Assembly: GCA_026770705.1 (NCBI GenBank) | Contig: JANJGN010000011.1 | Location: 98,518,001 to 98,582,000, forward strand | Origin: Isurus oxyrinchus | Taxonomy: Eukaryota | Direction of reading: 5' to 3' | Length of the DNA: 64,000 bases | Made by a program: the position numbers and the translations under genes | Notes under the pieces: model-generated | What the model saw: the letters and a program-made list of their open reading frames with translations, nothing else | Database searches by the model: none | What the model was told of the DNA's origin: nothing | Shown: positions 41 to 63,330 of the stretch, one piece after another | How positions within the stretch are numbered: the stretch's first letter is position 1 | How the letters are laid out: each line of letters starts with the position of its first letter

Positions 41-2899
41 CAGTCCTTCATGCCGCTTTATGCATGTTCAATTGTGCTGGCCTAAAAGAGGAGCTTGGCT
101 AGAGGTGGAGTTCCTGTGCTGGTGTCAAGTCGTGTTACATGCTGATTGATGTCATAATCTTCCTGCTCTGTATACTTCAGCAGACATCAAGTGCAAATAA
201 GCTAACTCTATTATCAAGTTGGCATTAAGTATGCTTTGTACCAGAAATGTGTGCCCACCACGAATGCCATTTTGGAACCCAAGGGTGCTTATAACCCTAC
301 CCTGACCATATTGGTTTATGAAAAGATGTTGGGAGCTTACATACGAGGGAGAGTGCAACATACAGGACTTTCCATCATTGTATTGTTTATATTGCACACT
401 CACTGATTTCATTTTTTAACCTATGGAAGAGTGAGGTGATAACAAAAGCACAAGAATCTCTATTTCTATGGCCCTCCTCACAAACAGAGCAATATTTCAG
501 ACTGCTTTACATAGGTAAACAAAGAACGGACAAGGCAAAGAAAAAAGAGATTGAGGAAATAAAACAGTCTTAAGGGAGCTGTCTCAAAGAGGCTTCTGAA
601 TAGAGAGGGTTAACAAAGGCATGGTACTAGGGGAAGAGAGACTGAGCATGATGGTTGAAGGAGGGGCCATCAATAGAGGCGGCTGGGTAAGAAGTAGTCA
701 TCTAGTATCAAAGGCGTACAGGATGAAAGAAGGAATGCATTTTTGCAGAAGATCATTCAGGTGGAGTGGGCAAGGTATTAGAGGAATTTGAAGGCAAGGA
801 TATAGACCCTGAGGTCGTTTCACTGGGGTGGGGTACAGGAGTCAGTGGGGCTTGGTGAGAAGGGAGATAATGATGGTATGGTTGTTGACATGGATGAGAA
901 CATGGGCAGCCATGGTTTGCATAAATTGTCATGGGTGGACAAGTTGTAGGTTGTGGAGGGTGGAAAGGGGAGTACTGAGAAAATTGAGCCAAGGTAACAA
1001 AGACATGGATAAGGCTTCTGTAGTACATTTGGTTCTAGCAGCAGAAAACAAGAATAAAGAAGGATAAAGAGAAATGTTCAACAAGATTACAAAAGCAAAA
1101 ATACTGTGAATGCTGGAAATCTGAAATAAAATCAAAGTCCTGGGCATACTCAGCAGGTCAGGCAGCATCTATGGAAAGAAAGAAAGAATTAACACTTCAG
1201 TTCAATGACCTTTGATCAGAGCCAGGAAAAAAAGATCGAAGAGGCCTTACACAAGTGAAAGGGTGAGGGTGGGAAAAAGGCCAAAGGGAACTGGGAAATC
1301 CTTTAATATGCCTTAAGTGGCCCTTAATGAACTGTATTGGCTACCAACTGCATGCAGACAGGTGGCCTTGCCATCTGCACCTCCACCCCCTCGCCTCAAT
1401 GAAAATGGCCCAGAGATAGGATGAAACTGGCACACTGGCTGGCGGAGCTACGTTTAGCTCCCACCCACCTCTAGGCCCCACTGGGGTCATCATCAAAGCT
1501 CAAGCCTGGTAACTTTGTTTCTAACTCCACAGCTGCTGCCTATCCTTCTGAGAATTTTCAGCATTTTCTGTTGTTATTTGTTCATTAAGATTGCCCTTTT
1601 CAATTTAACCAGCACAGTTTCAGGATTGTGCATAAGTGGAAGCCTGATTAGAGTTTTGAACATGAATGATGGGGGAGGTGGGACCTTTTCCAGGACTTTA
1701 AAAAAAATGGTTTAAATTGGGATTATGATTATGTAGTTTTTAATTATGTGAGAACTTATGGCAAAGATAGAGATTGAAGTGCTGAAAATGCAAACATGAA
1801 GGGATGGAAGGAAGCTGGATGGTCAGGAACTGGGTCAGGTGGGTTTCAAAGGTGGGCTTCATAAGCTTAATGAGGGCAACAGAGAAGTTGTGTCAAAAAC
1901 TATGGAATAAGGGGCTGGAATTTGGGGTGGAGCTAGAAACAGCAGAGAAAATTATCTTGATTTTGAACATAAAATAGCTCAGCATTTGAAAGGTTATTCA
2001 GCATTCCCAGATTCCCAGTCAGGAGCAACAGTGCTGGCAGGAGAACTTTGCTAATTATGCTGACATTATAACTTCATCACACACTTCCTTTGCCTGCAGT
2101 TTTCCTGTTGGGAGGTTGAAATTACTCTTTTGGTATCTCAAGTATAGATAAAGTGAAGGGAAGTCAGAAGCACCAGTTTGTTGTGAACGTGTTTGAAGCT
2201 GTTCCTGAAACCCCAGATGACCTTAGAATTCTGAAATGATCTGCCCACGGAAAGGGAAATTCAACAGTTTGTTACAGTTGAACATATTTGCCAATAGATA
2301 GCCATGCTCACTGGTCACCAAGTATGGTCTGTGGAATTGAGACCGTAAAGGTGGCTGTGTCAAGGGATTCAGCTGGTTTAGAAGAAAATTTGTAATTTAA
2401 TGGAGTCAGAAGTGTTAAAGTGGCCATCATAATGGCTTTGCGCTACGGGAATTTCAAAATCTAGATGGTTTCTACGTATTCCATCTTAAGGGACTGTTAG
2501 TATGGCATACTAGTCCCCTGGACCCTATGTTCTGCATCTTAAGGTTTTAAAAGAAGTGGCAACAGCAATAGTGGGTGCATTTGTTGTAATCTTCCAAAAT
2601 TCTCTATATTCTGGAAAGGTCTCAGTGGATTGGAAATTTACAAATGTAACACCCTGATTCAAGAAAGGAGGGAGGCAGAAAGCAGGGAACTATATGCCAG
2701 TTAGCCTAACATCTGTCATTAGGAACATTGAAAATGCTAGAATGTATTAGAGTAACAGGACAGTTAGAAAATTTTAATAGAAACAAGCAGAGTCAACATG
2801 GTTTTGTGAAAGGGAAACAGTGTTTGACAAATTTATTAATGTTCTTTGAGGGTGGATAAAGGTGAACCAATAAATGTAGTGTATTTGGATTTTTAAATT

Positions 2900-5584: not shown

Positions 5585-7410
5585 CTAGAGTTAGGAAGAA
5601 AAATTGTGCATCATTGCCATTTAAAATGAAAATCTGCAAAAGACTCGTGTATAATTTTTGAAAAACTATATTTATTGTAAGACTATAATGAAGGCATGTG
5701 CTCCACATTTAACTTTCTGTAATTTATTAATAGTTCTAATTACACTTAGAAATCAAACTCCAGAGGGAGAATTTTTTAAATATCAAGCACTGTAGGGTAA
5801 GGCTGCATCAGCTGTTGTTCCGTTCCTCCAAAGTTGTAGGGATACACTCATTTGTAAGATGCGAATGATTCATTTTTTTTAAAAAAGGATTTGTCTAATT
5901 GAGTTAGAAATATCAGGATTGAGGTTCTTCTAAGGCAATCACTTCCATCCAGTCAACCATAGTTCATCAGTCTCATAATAGTATAACTAATACCAGAACT
6001 AGACCTTGTTATTTCTGCAGGCAATAGAATGCCCTCTAACTTTCTAAATTTGTGATGTGGCTCTACCGAGAACATTCATTATGTGGTTGTGCATCTTGGC
6101 AATACATTGTTGAAAGAACATCAGTTCATTAGGTAGGTAATGTGCTCCATTCATCTTGACCAGGATTTTAATTGTTAGCAAGTTTCCTATAGGAAGTGCT
6201 AGTTTCAGTTATGTTCCTGCATCCCGATGTAGAACAAGCCTGTGGCAATTTTATCCAGTGGGGCACTTATGCATGTTGTTGGCTGACTTCCCACCTGGAA
6301 CAGCAGGGAGTAGTTGACATCCTGCAGAAATTCAGGTGGCCCTCAGCTGTCTGCCGGCACTCAGGCAAGTGTGGAAACTGGCTGCAGGAGGTCTCACAGT
6401 ATAGCAAGGCGGGTGGGAAGGGCGAATTCTGTGCCCACAAAGTAAAGTCTGGTAGACCTAAGATTGCCTTATGGGGTTTAGAGAATACTCCTACTAGCCC
6501 CACAAAGCAAAGTAAAAATTTAACCTTCAATGACCTCTTCCGCTTCTGATCCTCTTCTCACCTGACTTTACCTGGCAGGAAAGCTACAAAGCCTGCATCA
6601 CTCAAGTAGGAATTAAAATTATGGTCCGAGTTAAATGATGTCTGTCCCCTGATTTCCACATTTAAAGAAGCCTGCCAGCTTCAGAAGAGTGCCTTTCTCA
6701 CCTGCTCAGGAGAACAGGTTAAAACTGAGGATGGCAGGATGCAAGTGGATCATCAGTGAGTATTTCCCCCTGGTCAATTTTAGCTAAGTTTCAAATGGGC
6801 AAGAAGGGTTAAAAATCAACCCTCAAGTTTTTACCAGCAGTTTAATTAACAAGGCTTTAATTCACTTTAACAACCTGGTACATTTAATTATGTGCCATTA
6901 ATAACAAATTTTCATAGATTCCTTTCTGGAAATATTCATAAATTCCAATCATGCTTAAAACAATAAGCACATATTTTATACATGGTGTTGGGAAGAAAAA
7001 GATGAGGAACTGTCTGTGATATCCACAGTCAAATGGTTCAGCAACAGTTTGACACTCTTGTACTTTGGAATGATACAACTGTGGAACTGTACCTGAGTAG
7101 TGGTCACAGCCTTCAGGGAGGGAAGGGAAAAAAGGGGAAAACTGAAGAAGGAAGAAAAGTCCTACAGCATTGTAAATAAGGCTTTTATATCAAAGTTATC
7201 TGAATCATCTACTGATTTTTAAAAATAGCTTATATAGCACTGTTCATGGCCACTGGACGTCACAAAGCGCTTTACAGTCAATGATGTACTTTTGGAGTTA
7301 GTCACTGTTGTAATGTAAGGAACACAGCAGACAATGTGACAACAACCAAATAACCTGTTTTCGTGCTGTTTATTGAAGGATAGATATTACAACAGGGCAT
7401 TGGAGATAAA

Positions 7411-8858
7411 AACAAAAAACTACGGATGCTGGAAATCCAAAACAAAAACAGAATGACCTGGAAAAACTCAGCAGGTCTGGCAGCATCGGCGGAGAAGAAA
7501 AGAGTTGACATTTCGCGTCCTCATGACCCTTCAACAGAACTAGGTGAATCCAAGGAGAGGGGTGAAATATAAGCTGGTTTAAGGTGGGGGGGGCGGGGGG
7601 GGTGTGGTGTGGTTGTAGGGACAAGCAAGTAGTGATAGGAGCAGATCATCAAGAGATGTCACAGACAAAAGAACAAAAGGTGTTGAAGTTGGTGATATTA
7701 TCTAAATGAATGTGCTAATTAAGAATGGATGGTACAGCACTCAAGGTACAGCTCTAGTTGGGGTGGGGGGGGGGGCATTAAAGATTTAAATAAATTATTG
7801 GAAAAAACAAAAGGAAGGGGGAAGAAACAGAAAGGGGGTGGGGATGGAGTTCAAGACCTAAAGTTGTTGAATTCAATATTCAGTCTGGAAGGCTGTAAAG
7901 TGCCTAGTCGGAAGATGAGGTGCTGTTCCTCCAGTTTGCGTTGGGCTTCACTGGAACAATGCAGCAAGCCAAGGACAGATATGTGGGCAGGAGAGCAGTG
8001 TGGAGTGTTAAAATGGCAAGCGACAGGGAGGTTTGGGTCATTCTTGCAGACAAACCGCAGGTGTTCTGCAAAGCGGTCGCCCAGTTTACGTTTGGTCTCT
8101 CCAATGTAGAGGAGACCGCATTGGGAGCAACGAATGCAGTAAACTAAGTTGGGGGAAATGCAAGTGAAATGCTGCTTCACTTGAAAGGAGTGTTTGGGCC
8201 CTTGGACAGTGAGGAGAGAGGAAATGAAGGAGCAGGTGTTACATCTTTTACGTGGGCATGGGGAGGTGCCATAGGTGGGGGTTGAGGAGTAGGGGGTGAT
8301 GGAGGAGTGGACCAGGGTGTCCCAGAGGAACGATCCCTACGGAATGCCGCCGAGGGGGTGAAGGGAAGATGTGTTTGGTGGTGGCATCATGCTGGAGTTG
8401 GCGGAAATGGCGGAGGATGATCCTTTGAATGCGGAGGCTGGTGGGGTGATAAGTGAGGACAAGGGGACCCTATCATGTTTCTGGGAGGGAGGAGAAGGTG
8501 TGAGGGCGGATGCGCGGGAGATGGGCCGGACACGGTTGAGGGCCCTGTCAACGACCGTGGGTGGAAAACCTCGGTTAAGGAAGAAGGAGGACATGTCAGA
8601 GGAACTGTTTTTGAAGGCAGCATCATCAGAACGGATGCAACGGAGGCGAAGGAACTGAGAGAATGGGATGGAGTCCTTACAGGAAGCGGGGTGTGAGGAG
8701 CTGTAGTCGAGATAGCTGTGGGAGTCGGTAGGCTTGTAATGGATATTGGTAGACAGTCTATCACCAGAGATTGAGACATAGAGGTCAAGGAAGGGACGGG
8801 AAGTGTCAGAGATGGACCACGTTAAAATGATGGAGGGGTGGAGATTGGAAGCAAAACA
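7411..8858 (-). mobile_element. Penelope-like element (RT C-terminus, GIY-YIG endonuclease, 3' region), inserted in a SINE
   Basis: ORF 7851..8180 NLVYCIRCSQCGLLYIGETKR...RFAEHLR is a PLE GIY-YIG domain. TSD GGAGATAAA at 7402-7410 and 8859-8867. Confidence 0.9.
7503..7541 (-). ncRNA. Minimal type I hammerhead ribozyme motif (variant core, partly decayed) in a PLE
   Basis: Minus strand reads AGTT-CTGTTGA-A-GGGTC-ATGAG-GACGC-GAAA-TGTC-AACT. Confidence 0.55.
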
Positions 8859-12104: not shown

Positions 12105-12247
12105 AGATAAAAGCAAAAAACTGCAGATGCTGGAAATCCAAAACAAAAATACTTGGAAAAACTCAGGAGGTCTGACAGCATCTGCGGAGAAGAATACAGT
12201 TAACGTTTCGAGTCCGTATGACTCTGTTGAAGAGTCATATGGACTCG
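12105..12247 (-). mobile_element. Short PLE 3' fragment with a fold-back at the hammerhead motif
   Basis: 15-bp TSD AAAGTTAAGTACAAA at 12090-12104 and 12248-12262; inverted arms at 12206-12225 and 12231-12250. Confidence 0.8.
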
Positions 12248-12899
12248 AAAGTTAAGTACAAATCTGATTCAGTAAAGGATTACCATTTAATTCATATTGA
12301 AATAAGAACACAAGATAACAAACAGGAGCAGGAATAGGCCATTCAGCTCTTTGAGCCTGCTCCACCATTCAATGAGATCACTGCTAGTCTTCTACTTCAA
12401 CACCATTGTCCTGCACTATGCCCATATCTCTTGACGCTTTTAATATGTAGAAATCTATCAATCACAGTCTTAAACATACTCAGGAACTGCTGGAGATTTT
12501 CTGCTTCAACTTTGAAACTTGCTACATCTTTAGAAACCTGTATTGAAGGTGAGTTCATTATTATCCAGCTCCAGGTTCATCTTTGTAGACCAACTTGATT
12601 TGAGCTTTCTACTTCACATCTGATCAGTTGGCAAGACTGATCTATTCCACTCTAGAACATTGCCTGATTACACTTTACTTTTGCCTATTTGCTGTTTAAT
12701 CCTCATCTGTGCTTTCACGTTCCTAAATGTCCTGCTTGCTAACTTTGTCAAGATAGCTCATCACAAGCTCCTGCAAAATTCACACACCAAATTAACCAGC
12801 ATCTTGCCCATTTCTAATAGTTCATTGTGCCCCTCAAGTCAACTTCAAAATCCTCCTTCTCACTTTCAAATTCCTCCATGACATTGCTTCACACAATAT

Positions 12900-22324: not shown

Positions 22325-24150
22325 GAAATTTACCGGAACACAGAGGCCTGAACAGTCCCCATCCACCACCACTCTCCTCTGACTGGCTGAACTTCTCTCA
22401 CTGAACAATTTCTCCTTAAACTTAAAGGTGTGGCTATGGGTACCTGCATGGGCCCCAGTTATGTCTGTCTCTTTATGGGAACATTCCTTGTTCCAGCCCT
22501 ACTCAGGCCCCCTCCCACAACTCTTTCTCCGGTACATCGATGACTGTTTTGGTGCTGCTTCATGCTCTCGTCTGGACCTGGAAAAATTTATCAATTTTTG
22601 CTTCCAATTTCCACCCTTCCATCACCTTCACATGGTCCATCTCCGACACTTCCCTTTCATTCCTTTACCTCTCTGTCTCAATTTCTGGTGATAGATTGTG
22701 CACCAATATTCATTACAAGCCCACCGGGGCCCACAGCTACCTCAACTACAGCTCCTCACACCCTGCTTCCTGTAAGGATTCCATCCCATTCTCAGTTCCT
22801 TCGCCTCTGTCCCATCTGTTCTGATGATGCCATGTTCCAAAATGGCGCTTCTGACATGTCTTCCTTCTTCCATTACCAAGGTTTCCCACTCACTGTGGTT
22901 GACAGCGCCCTCAACCGTGTCCAATCCATCTCCCGTGCCTCTGCCCTCACCCCTTCCTCTCCCTCCCAGTGCTATGAGGGGGACCCTCTTGTCCTCACTT
23001 ATCACCCCATCAGCCTCTGCATTCAAAGGATCATCCTCTGCCATTTCTGCCAATGCCAGCATGATGCCACCAAACAGATCTTCACCTCACCTCCCCGTCA
23101 GAATTCCGTAGGGACCATTCCCTCTGAGACACCCTGGTCCACTCCTTCATCACCCCCAACACCTCATTCCCCACTCACGGCACCTTCCCATTCAATCGCA
23201 GAAGGTGCAACACCTGCCCCTTTACCTCTTCCCTCCTCACTGTCCAAGGGCCCAAACACTCCTTTCAGGTGAAGCAGTGCTTCACTTGCACCTCCTTCAA
23301 TTTGGTCTACTGCATTTGCTGCTCTCAATGTGGTCACCTCTATACTGGAGAGACCAAACGCAGGCTGGGTGACCGCTTTGCAGAACACCTCTGGTCTGTC
23401 CACAAGCATGACCCAAACCTTCTTGTTGGTTGCCATTTTAACACACCATCCTGCTCTCATGCCCACATGTCCATCCTTGGCCTGCTGCAATGTTCCAGTG
23501 AAGCTCAACGCAAACTGGAGGAACAGCACCTCATCTTCTGATGAGGCACTTTACAACATTCCGGATTTAACATTGAGTTCAACAACTTCAGACCATGAAC
23601 TCTCTCCTCTATCCTTACCCCTTTTTTATCCCCTTTCTCAATATTCATTTTCATTTTAAAATTTTTTTTTACCAACTTATTTTTATTTATTTTCATTTTT
23701 ACTCATCGTTTTATCCCCTTTTATCCTATTTTCAAGCTTTTTTCCCCACCATCGTCCCCTATCCCAACAAGGGCTGTCTGTCACCTGTTCATGTTGTTCT
23801 TTTCAGAGTACTTACCCTTCTCCTGCTATTATCATAGTCTGCTTTCAGAACTTAATGGCACTATCAGCACCTCCTTTAGCCCTTACCACTACCATTAACA
23901 CCCACTCTGTCCTTTTGTTCAATCTCTCCTTTGCCCCCACCTATCGCTGGCCTTCTATCCAGCTTCACCTGCTCCACCCCCCCTTAAACAGTATAATTTT
24001 CATTACATTTATAATTCTCTTTAGCTCCGAAGAGTCATATGGATTTGAAATGTTAGCTCTGTTTTTCTCTCCACAGTATGTTAGACTGCTGAGTTTTTCC
24101 AGCATTTTCTGTTTTTGTTTCAGATTTCCAGCATCTGCAGCATTTTGCCT
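22325..24150 (+). mobile_element. Penelope-like element (RT YIDD, GIY-YIG, 3' region)
   Basis: FLRYIDDCFGAASC in ORF 22428..22691; NLVYCICCSQCGHLYTGETKR in ORF 23269..23541; degenerate hammerhead at about 24023-24058. Confidence 0.9.
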
Positions 24151-24270
24151 TTATCCAAGAAATGTACCCTATTTCAAACTGTAAAGTTTAAAAGATAAAA
24201 TAAAAATCTAAAATAAAAAAATTGTTAAAAATAAATATTTTATTTTTTCTACATAAAACAAAGCTCTTAC

Positions 24271-26072: not shown

Positions 26073-26111
26073 AGTTCTGATGAAAAGTCATACGGACTCG
26101 AAACATTAACT
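26073..26111 (+). ncRNA. Minimal hammerhead ribozyme motif with canonical core, in a PLE 3' fragment (about 25990-26165)
   Basis: AGTT-CTGATGA-A-AAGTC-ATACG-GACTC-GAAA-CATT-AACT; two substitutions from the apparent family consensus. Confidence 0.6.
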
Positions 26112-35934: not shown

Positions 35935-36420
35935 ATCAGAGGTTAGAAACAAATGAAAGAGGCATGTTGTTGAAGCTTTTCGTCTTGTCCTCATCAGGAT
36001 AGCTGCAAGAATGTCAACTTTTAATAGGAGCAACAATTTATACTGCATGTGAAAAGGGTGATGATTGGTTGGCAAGTCGGCTCTGATTGGTTGAGACATT
36101 GCCATGGAGAATACAACAGGAAGCCATTGTCCCCCAGGCTTTTGTTTACTTCAATAAAAGAGGCAATACCTGGACAAATTCCTTTTGCCTGCAGAAAACA
36201 GGTCCCTGAGTATGAATATACATTGCTTCTAGAGGTGTAAGTGAGCTACATTGCAAGCACAACTGATAATCTTCAACTGGTTGTTACTGTAATTCTGAGC
36301 ACACTCAGGATTGTTCAGCAAGTACTGCCCAAACATGGGATCACATCTAATGTTAGATATTATATTCTGACTTTTGCAAGCATGGGCTGGCTTGGTATGG
36401 TAAATACTCTTCCTATTGTA
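35935..36420 (-). mobile_element. Second PLE family: endonuclease C-terminus plus terminal region
   Basis: GQYLLNNPECAQNY..QLKIISCACNVAHL in ORF 36229..36501. The same family occurs at about 48415-48620(+) and 26165-26415(+). Confidence 0.7.
35966..36001 (-). ncRNA. Minimal hammerhead motif of the second PLE family
   Basis: Minus strand reads TATC-CTGATGA-GGACAAGAC-GAAA-AGCTTC-AACAAC. Core is intact and stem III is the palindrome AGCT; stems I and II are decayed. Confidence 0.55.
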
Positions 36421-41158: not shown

Positions 41159-42052
41159 TGTATTTTTCTTACTGTTTACAGGGAGCTGTGAGACTGCAAT
41201 GCAATACTGGACTAAATTGAATTAAGTGGAGATCACAACAACATTTAAGAATAGGTTAAAAAGATGGTAAGAAAGGGGATATAGAACAAGGGTGAAATGC
41301 TGCGGATGCTGGACACCTGAAATAAGAACACAAAATGCTGGAAAAGCTCAGCAGGTCTGGCAGCATCTCTGGAGAGAGTAACAGATTAATGCTTTAAGCC
41401 CGTATGACTCTTCTTCAGAGATATAGACTAAGCATTGGCATGTGGGATTAGAATACTGCTGTACTGGTGGATAAACACCAGCACAAATAGTTTCTATGTT
41501 GCAATTTTTAGGTAAAAGCAGTTACTAATAAAAATAAAGGTGAATGTGCAAGCATGAGAAAATAAATACACATACACCACGTGTCACACAAGCTTCACTG
41601 CAATCAGTTCAAAGCAGCAATGGTGGAAGCCTGGCAACAGATTAACATCTACATGCTTAGTGATGAAGACAGTAACAAACTTATTATCAAAATCCAATTT
41701 AAAAATATATTGACCGGTGGTAACCTACAAGTCTGTTTTAGGGTTTCTGGACAATCACACAAATATTATTACAAATGTACTGTGGGGACTGCTGCTATTT
41801 AGATGAGATTTTAAGCCTGTCTGTCCTCAGTTGGATGAAAAAAGAACAGGGCAGTTCTTCCTTAAGCCCTAGGCAATATTTATCACTCAAACAAAAGAAA
41901 ATCTGGCCATTTCATTGATGTCCATGGCCATTGCCCCACGAAAACTGGCTGCCACGTTTCTCTACATGACAACAGTGACTACACTTCAGAAGTACTGTAC
42001 TTCATTGGTTGTAAAGTGCTTTGGGGTGTCCAGAGATTATGAAAAGTGCTAT

Positions 42053-45870: not shown

Positions 45871-48010
45871 TGTAAGTGGACTTGAAGGTTAAATACCTCC
45901 CAAAAACTTACAAATTGGTGACACCGACATGATCGGAGATGAAGAAGGAAGACTTAGTGTTTGTAACAAAGGATCTTGGTATATCTGCCAGGCCAACAGC
46001 AGCATTGGGAAGAGAAAGCCCTCAGGGTTGTGGGATCATTGAAAACCCGCCAGTGACTCAGACGCTTTTAAAGATGACAGCTAAAACTGTTTCTTCTCTC
46101 TACCAAGAAAAGTTACACAAGATGTCAAGTAAAGGGATCCAGACACTGCTTATGAAGTGTCTGGAGAAAGGGGGTTGGGTCCCTTTTGAAGAAGTAGTTA
46201 CATTTATCCAGGAACGGCCGGGTAAGAAAAAGTTAAGAGCTGAAAAGGCAAAGAGTCTTGTGGCTTATGGAGCATATTACTGTGCTTGGAGAGGTGATAA
46301 GGCTTTTAAACAGAAACAGGAAGAGATTGAGAACTTAAGAAATGAATTACAGCAGAAGGATCAGGAGGTAGTAAGGTTAAAGAAGCACATTTGTACTTTG
46401 GAATTGGGAGCTGAACAGTCAGCTGTCTTATTACAACAGCAGAGCATGTGCAGTCTGCATGCAGAAGCCACCTTGGTTGAGGTACATCAGTTAGGCAAGA
46501 CCTCACAGAATGTCAGGAGGAGAACAGGAAACTCACAGGAGCTGGATGATGCCAGGGGAGTTTTAAGGGAATCAGTTAAATAGCCTCATGGGGATATAGA
46601 TCACTCTCTCTCTGTAAAATTAACTAACTAGAACTAACAGAGAAGTTAGGAAATCAGCAAGCACCAGTATCAGCTGTTACAGCTGGAGCAGTTCAGGGAA
46701 TAGGTGTGATTGAACCAGGAGACTGGTTAGATTGGGATCATGGGACTCAGGAAAGAACCAGGAGAGAGTGGTCAGCAGGCTGTGATTCCCTTGAATAGAG
46801 CTTTAACCCTTCAGTTGCTGTGTTTAGTGTGTGGAGCGTAATGGACCCGCAAGGTCAGGTCCAGTCCAGAGAGGTCGGCGTGTGCCTCCTTGCCCCAGGA
46901 GAAGCTGAAGCATTGGGGTGAAAATTAGGGCCCATTGAGCTGGGAGTGATCCTATTAGGAGAAGGGGTGATTTTAGAAGGGCCCACAATGATTTAGATGA
47001 TCCAGACTTTAAGCAGGTGCTCCTGACATCATGCTTAAATTCTGAGAGGTCAGATGTCCCTGCTGATGTCTTTCAGAATGACCACCAGCTTTGTGAGCTT
47101 TTCAGAGAGATCCTTAATGTCCTCAGGATCTGGAAATTGAATCTGGCTGCAGTAATGAGCTAAACTTTACAGAAGCTTGATGAATCTGAAAAGTGTAAAG
47201 ACTTCACTGTGCTGAGAAATCTGATAAGGTTTTTCAGGAGTCAGATGATTTATGACGCAAGGCATGCAAGAGATTCAAGAATTAAAAGGGAAACAGGACA
47301 GGCAAGAGGTACTTGTCCTTGCTAAAATGAGAGATGAGATGAGCTCCCTTTTCTGCGGGACAATACAACAGCTGCTTGTGTGTCTGGCCAAAAAGTAAAT
47401 TGATCTGTTTCTCTAAATTCCACCAAGTCACAACTAAGGTTAAGGAAGAAAAGAAAATTTGAGCAGAAGGAAAATGGTTAGGAGAAAATAAGCTTGTAGG
47501 CTCATAGTAGAGTTAAGATGCTGTGTGGAAAGGAAAAATACCATGGATGAGTAAGTTTGCTTGTGTATTTTGTTGAAGTATAAATCTTTTCTCTGTCTGA
47601 ATGTGATTTTTTTTAGGTGCCTGTAAGTGCTGTTTCTGGGTCACTGTATTAACCCTCTGTAGTCTGGTCTTGTATGTTGTTTTAAGTTTTCTTTTTTTTC
47701 CCCTAGTTGTTTAATGTGTGTCACCATTTGTATAATCGTTGAGATTTTAAACCAGTTCAAAGCTTAATTTGTTTTTTCTTCTCTCCCCTGAAGCTCGCGA
47801 TCTGGGGATACTTTTGACACTTTGTGTTGATCTCATTATAAGAGCTCATATTTCTAGGGGTACATGGGAATATGAAAGTGATTGTTGAGGGTGACTATGT
47901 CAATTTAATATAAGGCTTAATTGTGGATTTGTGGGAACTCAATGACCAGTTAAAAGTGAGAATTATAAGTCTGGTCTAGAGGGATGTGGAATTAGTGTTA
48001 GAATGTTACT
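45871..48010 (+). mobile_element. LTR retroelement or endogenous-retrovirus relic: mini-LTR, tRNA-Trp PBS, gag-like region
   Basis: TGTAAGT...ACTTACA at 45871-45912; PBS TGGTGACACCGACATGAT at 45916-45933; ORF 45939..46583 with a coiled-coil stretch. The 3' boundary is uncertain. Confidence 0.7.
45939..46583 (+). pseudogene. gag-like ORF (214 aa); decayed gag-like sequence continues beyond the stop
   Basis: Starts immediately after the PBS; heptad-like KQEEIENLRNELQQKDQEVVRLKKHI; fragmentary coding-like sequence continues to about 47150. Confidence 0.55.
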
Positions 48011-55060: not shown

Positions 55061-57132
55061 CCTTATCATCTTATCCTACTTACACCAAAGCTGACCATAC
55101 ATCCTTACATGGCTAAGAAAAGATAGACAATGTTACTCAGAGAAAAAATTCAAGTGTTTTATGGGGCTGGCACAATGGGTTTCTAAACCTCTGGGATCTC
55201 AGCCTAACTCTAGCTGTTTGCTCAGAAAGGATAGTTGATCTGGTGACCAGCATACCTCATCTACCACCACAATTTCTAATTATTTCATACCTTTAACATT
55301 AATGCAATTCCAAAGTTCTTCACAGAAGACATTTGGAAAACATACTGCAATTCTGGGGAGGAGATTAGCCAGGGTGCCCAAAAGCTTGGTTTGAGATGAG
55401 TTTTGAGGATTTTTTTTAAAAGGAGAGAGAAGTTGAGAGACAGGGAAGTAATTCGAGAGCAGGAATGGCAAGGTGTCATCAGTGCACATGGAAGCAGGCC
55501 TCATGTCAGCGTGTAGGTAAGATGGAGAAGGGGTTAAAAATGAACCCTTGTTGGACTCCGGATGCAATAGCATAGAGGTGAGAAGAAAAGCCATCGACAG
55601 AGATGTTTGTGTTACATTCAAAGGGACAGTTGTGGAATTATGCAAGGCCAATCCCACAGAGCGAGCAAAGGGACTGCCAAAAAACTCTGCAAAGAGGACG
55701 AGGAGTGATAATGTACTATAGTTATAATCAATGAGAATATTGGTCATGATTTTATTTGGGCCATTTTCATATCACGGGAATGACAGAAGCCAGACTGGAG
55801 ATGTTTGAACAGAGAGTTAAGATACAGACGGAAAACAGAAATAATGGTGTGAGGATGGAATTGTTGTGAGTGATTATCTTGTCCCTGAATTGGTAGTGCT
55901 CGATATTCACAGTCAATGAAGATGAGTGTTCCATTCTTAGCATTAACATACTATAACCTCAAACAATTTCACAAGAAGATTATTTCACACATAATAATTA
56001 TCCAAATTGTATTTCAGTAAATAAACTAGAACTTAGCTCAACAAAACAGATAGGAATTTCAGGGTTCCCTAAAATAAAATACTTGGGTAGATGGCTCACA
56101 GAAAACTTGCTGTAGGCATTTCTATACTGCAATTCATTTTACTGCAACCAAAGATAAGTATGCCTATACATTATGCATGCTGAGCATAATTTTTTTAACA
56201 CTATCAGAGATGAGTGTCTAAAACACATTAGCGGACACCAAGAGAAAACAGAGCAATTTCATATAAGCATAAAAGAAAATGGGAACTTGTTGAATAGCCT
56301 AAAATATCTAATCATTTTTGCACTTTGATATAGGAATAATTAATAATTTACTTTTCTGTTTTGAAATAGCTGAAGCCAATGATCTAAAAGGTTCTTTGTA
56401 ATTGGCAGCAGTGTGTGTACCATCAACAAAATGCACTGCAGCAACTCACCAAGCCTCCTTCGAAAGCACCATCCGAACCCACGACCTCAATCACCCACAA
56501 GAACAAAGGCAGCAGACTCACGGAAACGCCACCATCCGCAAATTCCCCTCCAAGCCATACACCATCCTGACTTGACACTATATCACCATTCTTCACTGTT
56601 GTTAGGTCAAAATCAGGGAACTGCCTTTCAAACAGCACCAGCACTGTACCTACACCAGATGGACTGCAGTGGTTCAAGAAGGTGGCTTACCACCACCTTC
56701 CTATTGGCAATTAGGGATATGCAACAAAGATTCATATCAGGGTGAGCGCAATATGACCAACATTTTGGGAAGATCAGAAGAATAATTCCTTCACATTTAG
56801 ATGAATATCTACAACCAATGCAACACTTCGGAACAGCAAAGGACTAAAATGCATTAATATACAGATCAGACTACTTTATTAAATAACAAAATGCTTGAAC
56901 CTAAAACAGGCACTGCTGGAAATACTCAGGATGACAGCATCTGTGGGAAGAAACAGAGGTAAATTTCAAGTCTTGTGACCTTTCATCAGGACTGCTTGAA
57001 CCATATCTACAAACATTCCATGGAATTCCATGTCTACCTATTTTGAGTGAACAGATTAATAATGAGAGAGTATACTGATACGAGAAATACATTCTGTTTC
57101 CACACACTATTCAGTCATTTGTTGCAGGACTA

Positions 57133-61101: not shown

Positions 61102-61712
61102 GTCTGTCCTTGGCTTGCTGCATTGTTCCAGTGAAGCCCAACACAAACTGGAGGAACAGCACCTCATCTTCCGACTAGACACTTTACAGCCTTCCGAACT
61201 GAATATTGAATTCAACAACTTCAGGTCTTGAACTCCCTCCTCCATCCCCACCCCCTTTCTGTTTCTTCCAATAATTTATATAGATTTTTCTTTTCCCACC
61301 TATTTCCATTATTTTAAAATCTTTTATGCCCCCCATCCCCAATAGAGCTATACCTTGAGTGCCGTACCATCCATTCTTAATTAGCACATACGTTTAGATA
61401 ATATCACCAACTTCAACACCTCTGTATTCTTTTGCCTGTGACATCTTTTGATTATCTGCTCCTATCACTGCTTGCTTGTCCCTACAACCACACCTTCCCC
61501 TCCACTTCTCGCCCCCCCACCACCGCCACCTTAAACCAGCTTATGTTATATTTCACCCCTCTCCTTCGATTCACCTAGTTCTGTTGAAGGGTCATGAGGA
61601 CTCGAAACGTCAACTCTTTTCTTCTCCGTCGATGCTGCCAGACCTGCTGAGTTTTTCCAGGTAATTTTGTTTTTGTTTTGGATTTCCAGCATCCCGCAGT
61701 TTTTTGTTTTTA
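61102..61712 (+). mobile_element. PLE 3' fragment, close inverted match to about 7411-7980
   Basis: End of the GIY-YIG domain (KLEEQHLIFRL) plus the 3' region with the hammerhead motif. Confidence 0.88.
61577..61615 (+). ncRNA. Best-preserved minimal type I hammerhead motif (CUGUUGA core variant)
   Basis: AGTT-CTGTTGA-A-GGGTC-ATGAG-GACTC-GAAA-CGTC-AACT: stem I AGTT/AACT, stem II GGGTC/GACTC, palindromic ACGT stem III, predicted GUC cleavage site. Confidence 0.65.
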
Positions 61713-63330
61713 TTACATAACCTCATGTATTCATCTAGACTTTTTTACATGACTATCCTTAGTCTTGTGACAAACACTTCAGACCCAATAAAATAGACAT
61801 CATCTACACAATACCAACAAGAAAGCTATATATTGGTATGCAATAATTATACACAAAAGGACCAAAGATTAGTAGAAAGAGACTATAAGATAGAAAAGTT
61901 CAAAAATAAACTAAAATAGCAGCCCACTGAACTGATTATGCAAGTTTAAATAGAAACTAAGCAATTTATAGTAGACAACATAGGGCTCGCTAGCACATGA
62001 TCAAAGCAAAATATTGCACCACAGAATAGTTGGGCATTGGGTCACTCTCAATATTCTGTACACTAACTTGTTTGGGATATCATGCACTCAAGAAAAGACA
62101 GAAACACAAATTCAAATGAACAAGGATCACAAATATGAACAGCAGATCATCTGTCTAATTGTTCAGTGATATGTGTTCAATAAGGGTAGGGAAAGAAAAT
62201 ATATGTGCTATCAATTTTTGACCAAGCATCATTAAGAGTGGGGGTGTTATGTACTATATGGCTGAATTTAGCAGTATTTTTAATTATTAGATGTGGAGAA
62301 AATTAAGATGGTTGCAAAGGTATTAATCAAAATTGAATTTTAAATAATTTAAGCAGAAACTAATTTCAGCCACTGACTGAAGATACTTACCGCAGCAAAA
62401 TTAGATCATCTACATAAAGTATTTAATCGTGGGTTCAATTTTCCACAATTTTTAACTCTCAAAAAAATCATATACAGGAGACTTTGTATTACTGAGATAG
62501 AATTTCGAATTAGGAACTGAGGGGGTCTGTAGTTTTCTGCCTACTGAATGGAAAAATCACAGGCTGATGAGCACAGAAGCAGAAAATTCTAAACAAAGCA
62601 TCTAAAACAAAATTATTCCACAAATGTATGAGTAGCAAAAATTAATCTTTATTAGAGATGGAATCTGGATGAAGGGTTGATTGTACAACGTCATTTAATG
62701 AATCACAGCAACATTCTACTCGTGTTGAAATACCAACAATAGACGAAGTTTAACCAGTTTATATTAATTAATTTAATCTTTAAAAACAGCTGAAATTGGT
62801 CCTCAGTGGCCTTTAGCTGTATTAGGAATTATTTTGTTTAAGGACAATGCTGGGTGGTTTAATAACAAGAGCTTTTTAATAAAAGCAAAAACTAAATAAC
62901 AGGTAAATAAACCAATTAATATTTCCAAACAGTTAATACAACTGGTGTTCAAAGATACATTTTGGTCAGGGATAAACCAGTCAGTAGCAGGGACGTATAA
63001 ATTGGAAAGGATGAGGTTTGACCCCTGATCTCTGCTGAGTGAGTGGACTTTAGCCAGTATAGTTGTAGCAGCAATACAGTTTCTCTCAATGCTTCTTGGC
63101 TGGGATGGTGAAAGTTGACCAAGACTTTGCACCACCCAACCTCATGTTTGGTGGTCTGCCTACTCTTGCTGCAAGTGTGCAGAGAATGGGCAATGCAGGC
63201 ACGCAGGATTAAGCTGAACTGTGATCATCACTACAGTTAAATTGCTTGTAGGCAGTCACTGTCTAAGGACACAGCATTTGAGTGAGGTATAAGAAGCACT
63301 TGGTACCTGCTGTGGAATCTCAGCAACAGT

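Follow-up and report, generated by a model that had tools for sequence, protein, structure and literature searches.

The Penelope-like insertion and its hammerhead motif

A 5'-truncated Penelope-like element (PLE) insertion was found at positions 61102..61713 (+) of the window, i.e. the whole 64-kb stretch of shark DNA analyzed. It comprises the end of a GIY-YIG ORF, a 3' UTR/pseudo-LTR (pLTR), a hammerhead motif and a tail. Homology with other copies extends from 61102 to near 61713, and alignment places the insertion at the 3' terminus of a full unit (L038). The hammerhead, a minimal type I motif, was located at 61577..61615 (+) from its sequence and from alignment with other subfamilies. 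Its 39 bases read, in order, AGTT / CTGTTGA / A / GGGTC ATGAG GACTC / GAAA / CGTC / AACT, letter for letter the full type I layout with CUGUUGA given in the preliminary description. Stem I consists of AGTT/AACT and stem II of GGGTC/GACTC (5 bp, one of them a G.U pair); according to sequence, folding and alignment, both can pair around the core. The ACGT palindrome, the GUC triplet (in agreement with NUH), the GAAA box and A15.1-U16.1 are all present, as are the G10.1-C11.1 pair and an extra A between A9 and G10.1. The palindromic 15.1-16.1 segment (ACGT) permits a dimer and is unchanged along the subfamily ladder described below. From sequence and genome counts, the core box C3-U4-G5-U6-U7-G8-A9 was assigned to 61581..61587 (+); by its U at position 6 (61584) the family departs from the canonical core consensus CUGANGA. 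Hammerhead matches were 0/10 at E ≤ 10 when the motif was searched against Rfam. From the hammerhead consensus, site-specific self-cleavage of the A6U motif is predicted after H17, here C17 (61611..61612, +; numbering according to the legend of Fig. 1 in PMC4209133). The tail 3' of the predicted cut (61616..61713, +) was defined by the 3' ends of the family, which form two clusters ~65 and ~100 nt beyond the cut.

Full units of the carrier were obtained by fetching spaced genome matches. L038 has a single ORF with an RVT_1 domain (E=7e-8) followed by a C-terminal GIY-YIG domain (E=9e-4), which bears out the Penelope-borne origin supposed earlier; hammerheads of the 61577-61615 type sit in the pLTR of this RT- and GIY-YIG-encoding PLE. 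In a tandem of three units (period 3.35 kb), the units are 99.8% identical to one another, the ORF is intact and every pLTR carries U6. The intact RT/GIY-YIG ORF encodes 917 aa counted from the first Met, and a comparison of two intact ORFs from independent copies gave 98.1% identity. Their nearest named protein relatives are from Chiloscyllium (65-69% identity), in keeping with a shark host. The translation contains a DKG motif, a CX4CxxC linker before the nuclease and a CxxC between the GIY-like and YIG motifs. Tandem or partial-tandem pLTRs, inverted 5' copies and a tail, which characterize the EN+ Penelope-like layout, were all found. Judged by the zinc linker and the EN motif layout, this EN+ PLE is probably of the Neptune/Nematis type. 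According to the searchable text of Craig 2021 (PMC8557442), those PLEs likewise have a single RT ORF, DKG, a CX2-5CxxC linker and GIY-YIG with CCHH, together with partial tandems and inverted 5' copies, the likeness being one of layout. A non-LTR retrozyme was ruled out, since the unit of 3.35 kb codes for RT/EN and is not short and non-coding. Coding constraint on the motif was ruled out as well because the main ORF begins downstream of the hammerhead, its first Met lying ~140 nt 3' of the predicted cut.

Further copies are found in the window. A longer member of this U6 subfamily, likewise truncated (7403..8856, -), has an RT-thumb/GIY-YIG coding remnant (GIY-YIG E=1.9e-4); its hammerhead at 7503-7541(-) is identical to 61577-61615 in the core and shows two private decay changes. 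A short insertion of an older U6 subfamily (12107..12250) is inverted head-to-head. Its hammerhead at 12223-12250(+), the short arm of the inversion with 12107-12225(-), combines CTGTTGA with the older stem II and lacks stems I and III. The same core change, previously noted at 7503-7541(-) and 12224-12250(+), therefore stands with a full motif at the first site, whereas at the second the core is present but the motif only partial. That two stem II loop variants carry CUGUUGA was also correct: they are successive subfamilies of a single U6 lineage. CUGAUGA is indeed retained at 26073 and about 56958-56990, where sequence and alignment identified an older canonical A6 relative with decayed G10.1 (26073..26111, +) and a more distant one with decayed stem III (56958..56990, -; CTGATGA at 56964-56989(-)). 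At 22340-24154 (+) this PLE lineage has a further copy, older and longer, with 82% identity to the young unit, GIY-YIG at E=4.6e-4 and a decayed hammerhead; additional decayed copies are at 41300-41419(-) and 1091-1226(-). At 35997 (-), canonical CTGATGA...GAAA occurs with a different stem II and an AGCT palindrome, probably the hammerhead of another PLE family. A 216-codon open frame at 45933-46583 (+) has a weak coiled-coil Pfam match (E=0.005).

Fixation of U6 and order of the core changes

The genome was searched for exact matches to a 33-mer of the motif with core positions 6-7 left open. The motif is not a chance occurrence, because 68,672 matches (34,358 + 34,314) were obtained versus 0 + 0 for the reversed-pattern control. 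Canonical A6 accounted for 99/68,672 matches, which is the level of point mutations, and positions 6-7 in the first 100 matches listed were TC (87), TT (12) or CT (1). For a sample independent of the core, 90 regions were taken from the first 100 of 3,924 ORF-start matches, giving 89 distinct copies. In the 55 copies containing the whole motif, position 6 was T in 54, C in one and A in none. A check of young copies for canonical CUGANGA had been suggested earlier; recent copies have U6 instead. The scarcity of A6 in the genome and the intact tandem ORFs with U6 also uphold the former statement that A6U was carried by actively retrotransposing copies. U6 is fixed in the active family.

Exact matches to a looser stem pattern numbered 90,465 for U6 versus 5,578 for A6; this ratio is confounded (inflated) by age, and a copy-number burst driven by A6U is not claimed. 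Age-matched within the older stem background, U6 was present in 8,021/12,344 matches. Contigs from runs under two organism labels contain the family, and no T-to-A difference >2% was seen at position 6, in a difference table which is weak for this position as it also misses the known variation at N7. A subfamily of A6 revertants was considered and rejected, the inspected A6-G7 copies standing in differing backgrounds. A pattern scan of metagenomes for the motif gave 0 matches.

For the order of changes, 211 copies were anchored on the tail, and the 88 with ≥ 150 nt of upstream pLTR entered a tree; the copies were gathered via pattern matches and are a non-random sample. The tree is a single ladder, CUGAAGA > CUGAUGA > CUGUUGA > CUGUCGA. 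When columns 6, 7 and CpG were removed, 67/67 T6 copies fell within one 71-tip clade, whose other members are a G6 copy, a C6 copy and two A6 copies that had been chosen as revertants; without the diagnostic columns this node has low support (UFBoot 29), and deeper nodes have 99-100. These placements indicate that A6U occurred once and was passed to all later subfamilies. CUGUUGA was the first U6 state because of the order of the ladder, because 99 of the first 100 older-background U6 copies listed have TT, and because TT is found in 3/3 ORF-start copies sharing the flank of the 61577-61615 copy. The proposal that CUGUCGA was original and gave rise to CUGUUGA by CpG decay has to be reversed, U7 being the earlier state and U7C the later. 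CpG decay was ruled out as the source of CUGUUGA in the lineage and explains no more than some of the TT copies in the youngest subfamily.

A6 and U6 subfamilies do not differ in stem I or in the ACGU palindrome. A canonical A6 side branch (L054, L053, L062, L071:9691) also has the G.U pair in stem II and a triplet reading GUC, independently of the U6 trunk; convergence or recombination may account for this. Two observations concern the flank upstream of stem I: in the youngest subfamily (L038:548-563) it now resembles the 3' half of the motif itself (GACTC-GAAA-TC), and across subfamilies it gains predicted pairing with the tail.

Substitutions after A6U and ends of the inserted copies

Six changes were placed on the trunk after A6U: U to C at N7, U to C at H17 (GUU to GUC), three in loop II and one in stem II, where A-U became G.U. 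None affected the 12 core sites or the 2 palindrome sites. A seventh change (loop C to T) was dropped as a CpG artefact of a 7-copy majority. Hammerhead chemistry leaves N7 and H17 free. Among junction bases, N7 (on two occasions) and H17 alone varied after A6U, and the remaining core was left untouched, in copies which were mostly collected by core-containing patterns, so that core-mutant side lineages below ~5% would escape. The probability that all changes fall on compatible sites by chance is 0.0008-0.003, and 0.004-0.04 under a hairpin-only model in which the stems are kept for another reason; for core sparing alone, significance was not reached (P about 0.11). Overall, tail and motif changed equally fast (10/63 sites versus 6/39), and therefore the whole region is constrained for additional reasons.

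Side lineages were found as well. N7 to G has 1,496 matches, with a diagnostic flank common to 13/44 inspected, and is a post hoc lead drawn from listings in which the other core sites were fixed. A loop II change is present in 6/55 ORF-start copies. No two-sided stem covariation propagated among the subfamilies; only the one-sided A-U to G.U change spread. A compensatory G-C repair of stem II was rejected as a subfamily, as its 205 matches have mixed backgrounds and are at point-mutation level.

The ends of the copies were used to determine which RNA was inserted. At the 3' side, 110/181 U6 copies end at the two tail sites and 43/181 run on into the next unit. At the 5' side, 68 of the 89 ORF-start copies run through the predicted cut and 0 start at +1..+12. 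At either hammerhead, the reverse-transcribed templates had therefore not been cut or had been re-joined. Such templates show that a given insertion can do without cleavage. Among older A6 copies a pile-up at the predicted cut is likewise absent; hence, its absence is no measure of activity and does not point to inactivity of U6.

A small pile-up of 5' ends was seen at the first bases of stem I (-30..-26; 7/89 ORF-start copies), and 19/30 inspected junctions at this site are head-to-head inversions. It is possibly a transcript start or an RT stop, and its flank resembles an initiator. A cap-derived G was rejected, since G precedes AGTT in only 9 of the 100 copies listed and given the inverted junctions. 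About 30 nt upstream of the pile-up, TTATATTT is conserved (family-wide; L217-L246, window 12107-12250). The hammerhead as a spliced exon (AG before, GT after) was discarded with 0 genomic junction matches and no GT..AG among the 15 joints listed. The tail of younger subfamilies contains a donor-like CAG/GTA (L038:641-649; window 61657-61666), and the oldest have CAGC; no spliced product at this site was found among genomic junctions and the joints listed.

Predicted activity of the U6 motif and comparison with known hammerheads

In predicted folds, the junction of U6-U7 closes up into a rod that is more stable than the open fold by 2.4 kcal/mol, and U7C removes the rod; as a prediction, this is a weak hint regarding activity. 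By nearest-neighbour energy, misfolds are favored over the designed dimer, whether position 6 is A or U.

The closest known motifs are the minimal hammerheads in metazoan PLE pLTRs (Cervera and De la Pena 2014, PMC4209133). Their searchable description gives the same pLTR position, a 4-bp stem I, the same extra base between 9 and 10.1, G10.1-C11.1, the same palindromic 15/16 segment without a stem III, and many solo copies. These hammerheads are slow even if canonical and need dimers. The core variant named there is U3-A8, whereas here the dominant active family has become fixed for U6; no shark sequence was found in the searchable supplement, one file of which was outside the search. A pyrimidine at A6 in an otherwise intact core is known from phage Bcep176 (Perreault 2011, PMC3088659; Naghdi 2020, PMC7151607). 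According to the accessible text, this natural A6C hammerhead is slow but active (<0.1 per min; PMC3088659), and A6C ribozymes favor Mn2+, attaining 0.18-0.31 per min there (PMC7151607). It differs in being C in a single phage sequence with measured slow, Mn-favoring activity, as opposed to U in tens of thousands of retrotransposed copies described from sequence alone. A natural A6U hammerhead was not found in the literature search and the searchable PMC4209133 supplement; Lunse et al. 2017 (RNA Biol 14:1499) was outside this scope and may bear on it. Natural A6C is thus already published, and A6U is a family-wide variant without a report found in the literature searched. The Anolis Poseidon element PAc (PMC11167929), as far as its accessible text goes, is likewise an EN+ PLE with tandem pLTRs, two 3' end sites in the tail past the hammerhead and insertion from uncut RNA. 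Unlike the shark element, PAc retains A6, and its hammerhead contains the ORF start; in the shark element the ORF begins ~140 nt downstream and has the CX4CxxC linker.

With about even confidence, we regard the U6 motif as an attenuated ribozyme that is unneeded for insertion and remains under selection for its rare cutting. A6U became fixed in the source elements of this young and highly abundant PLE family and, judging from published A6C and CUGA mutants, would strongly lower the cleavage rate. A dimer, and perhaps also the protein of the element, is predicted to be required for the slow cutting, so that most transcripts would stay whole and get copied, and residual cleavage (occasional unit-length or circular RNA, or turnover) may keep the core selected. 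The preliminary description had offered a functional variant or dispensable cleavage as alternatives; probably both apply in part, as insertion used uncut RNA, yet the remaining core is fixed. A credible explanation, although one we would not bet on, is that A6U ended catalysis, that cleavage is dispensable and that the motif is kept as a structured or sequence-specific pLTR element, either for protein binding beside the reverse-transcription start sites or as a promoter-proximal element. As far as its text is accessible, a full pairwise mutation scan gave low activity for all single and double CUGA mutants other than the C3/G8 swap (PMC9901934). The hammerhead of PAc requires protein for cleavage, and PAc with catalytic mutations in it still inserts in vitro (PMC11167929); Naiad PLEs proliferate without canonical hammerheads (PMC8557442). 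Loss of catalysis also agrees with the uncut templates, with a tail conserved as much as the motif and with 5' ends piling up where stem I begins, a pattern that a transcript start or an RT stop there could produce. However, post-A6U junction changes confined to N7 and H17, improbable even under the hairpin-only model, argue against a dead motif, as does its position outside the protein-coding region.

It is improbable that U6 is fully functional in its own context, the loss of A6 being offset by dimer geometry, the extra A, metal (Mn2+) or protein. The Mn2+ rates of A6C (PMC7151607) and the protein-assisted PAc hammerhead (PMC11167929) would be in line with such an offset, as would the rise of U17C to GUC in both the U6 trunk and the canonical A6 side branch. 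On the other hand, A6U came without an accompanying compensating core change, no second mutation rescued CUGA mutants in the scan as far as accessible (PMC9901934), and efficient cutting would strip the tail which the copies keep. Very improbable is a role of U6 RNAs as mere substrate strands in mixed dimers with older A6 transcripts. Stem I and the ACGU palindrome are common to both, and 5,578 exact A6 copies remain, but for this role the U6 lineage would have no need to keep its enzyme-side bases (CUG..GA, GAAA) unchanged, and the A6 subfamilies are at the old end of the ladder.

Beyond the attenuated ribozyme preferred here, a bolder and somewhat doubtful idea is that shark PLEs tune the hammerhead at position 6 like a rheostat, A6U giving a slow, protein- or metal-gated ribozyme. 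Slowness would then be favored, uncut RNA being the insertion template, and rare cutting would still be required. Proposed roles of hammerheads in PLEs range from circle-forming processing to parasitism. If the rheostat idea were true, no earlier natural A6U hammerhead would be on record as cleaving, and the subfamilies would provide a natural before/after series on the role of hammerheads in PLEs. The genome offers ordered subfamilies that precede and follow the core change; the later copies number at least 90,000. This series bears on whether the success of an element is compatible with a ribozyme that is slowed or dead. Searches based on CUGANGA overlook the dominant hammerhead-like motif of this genome.
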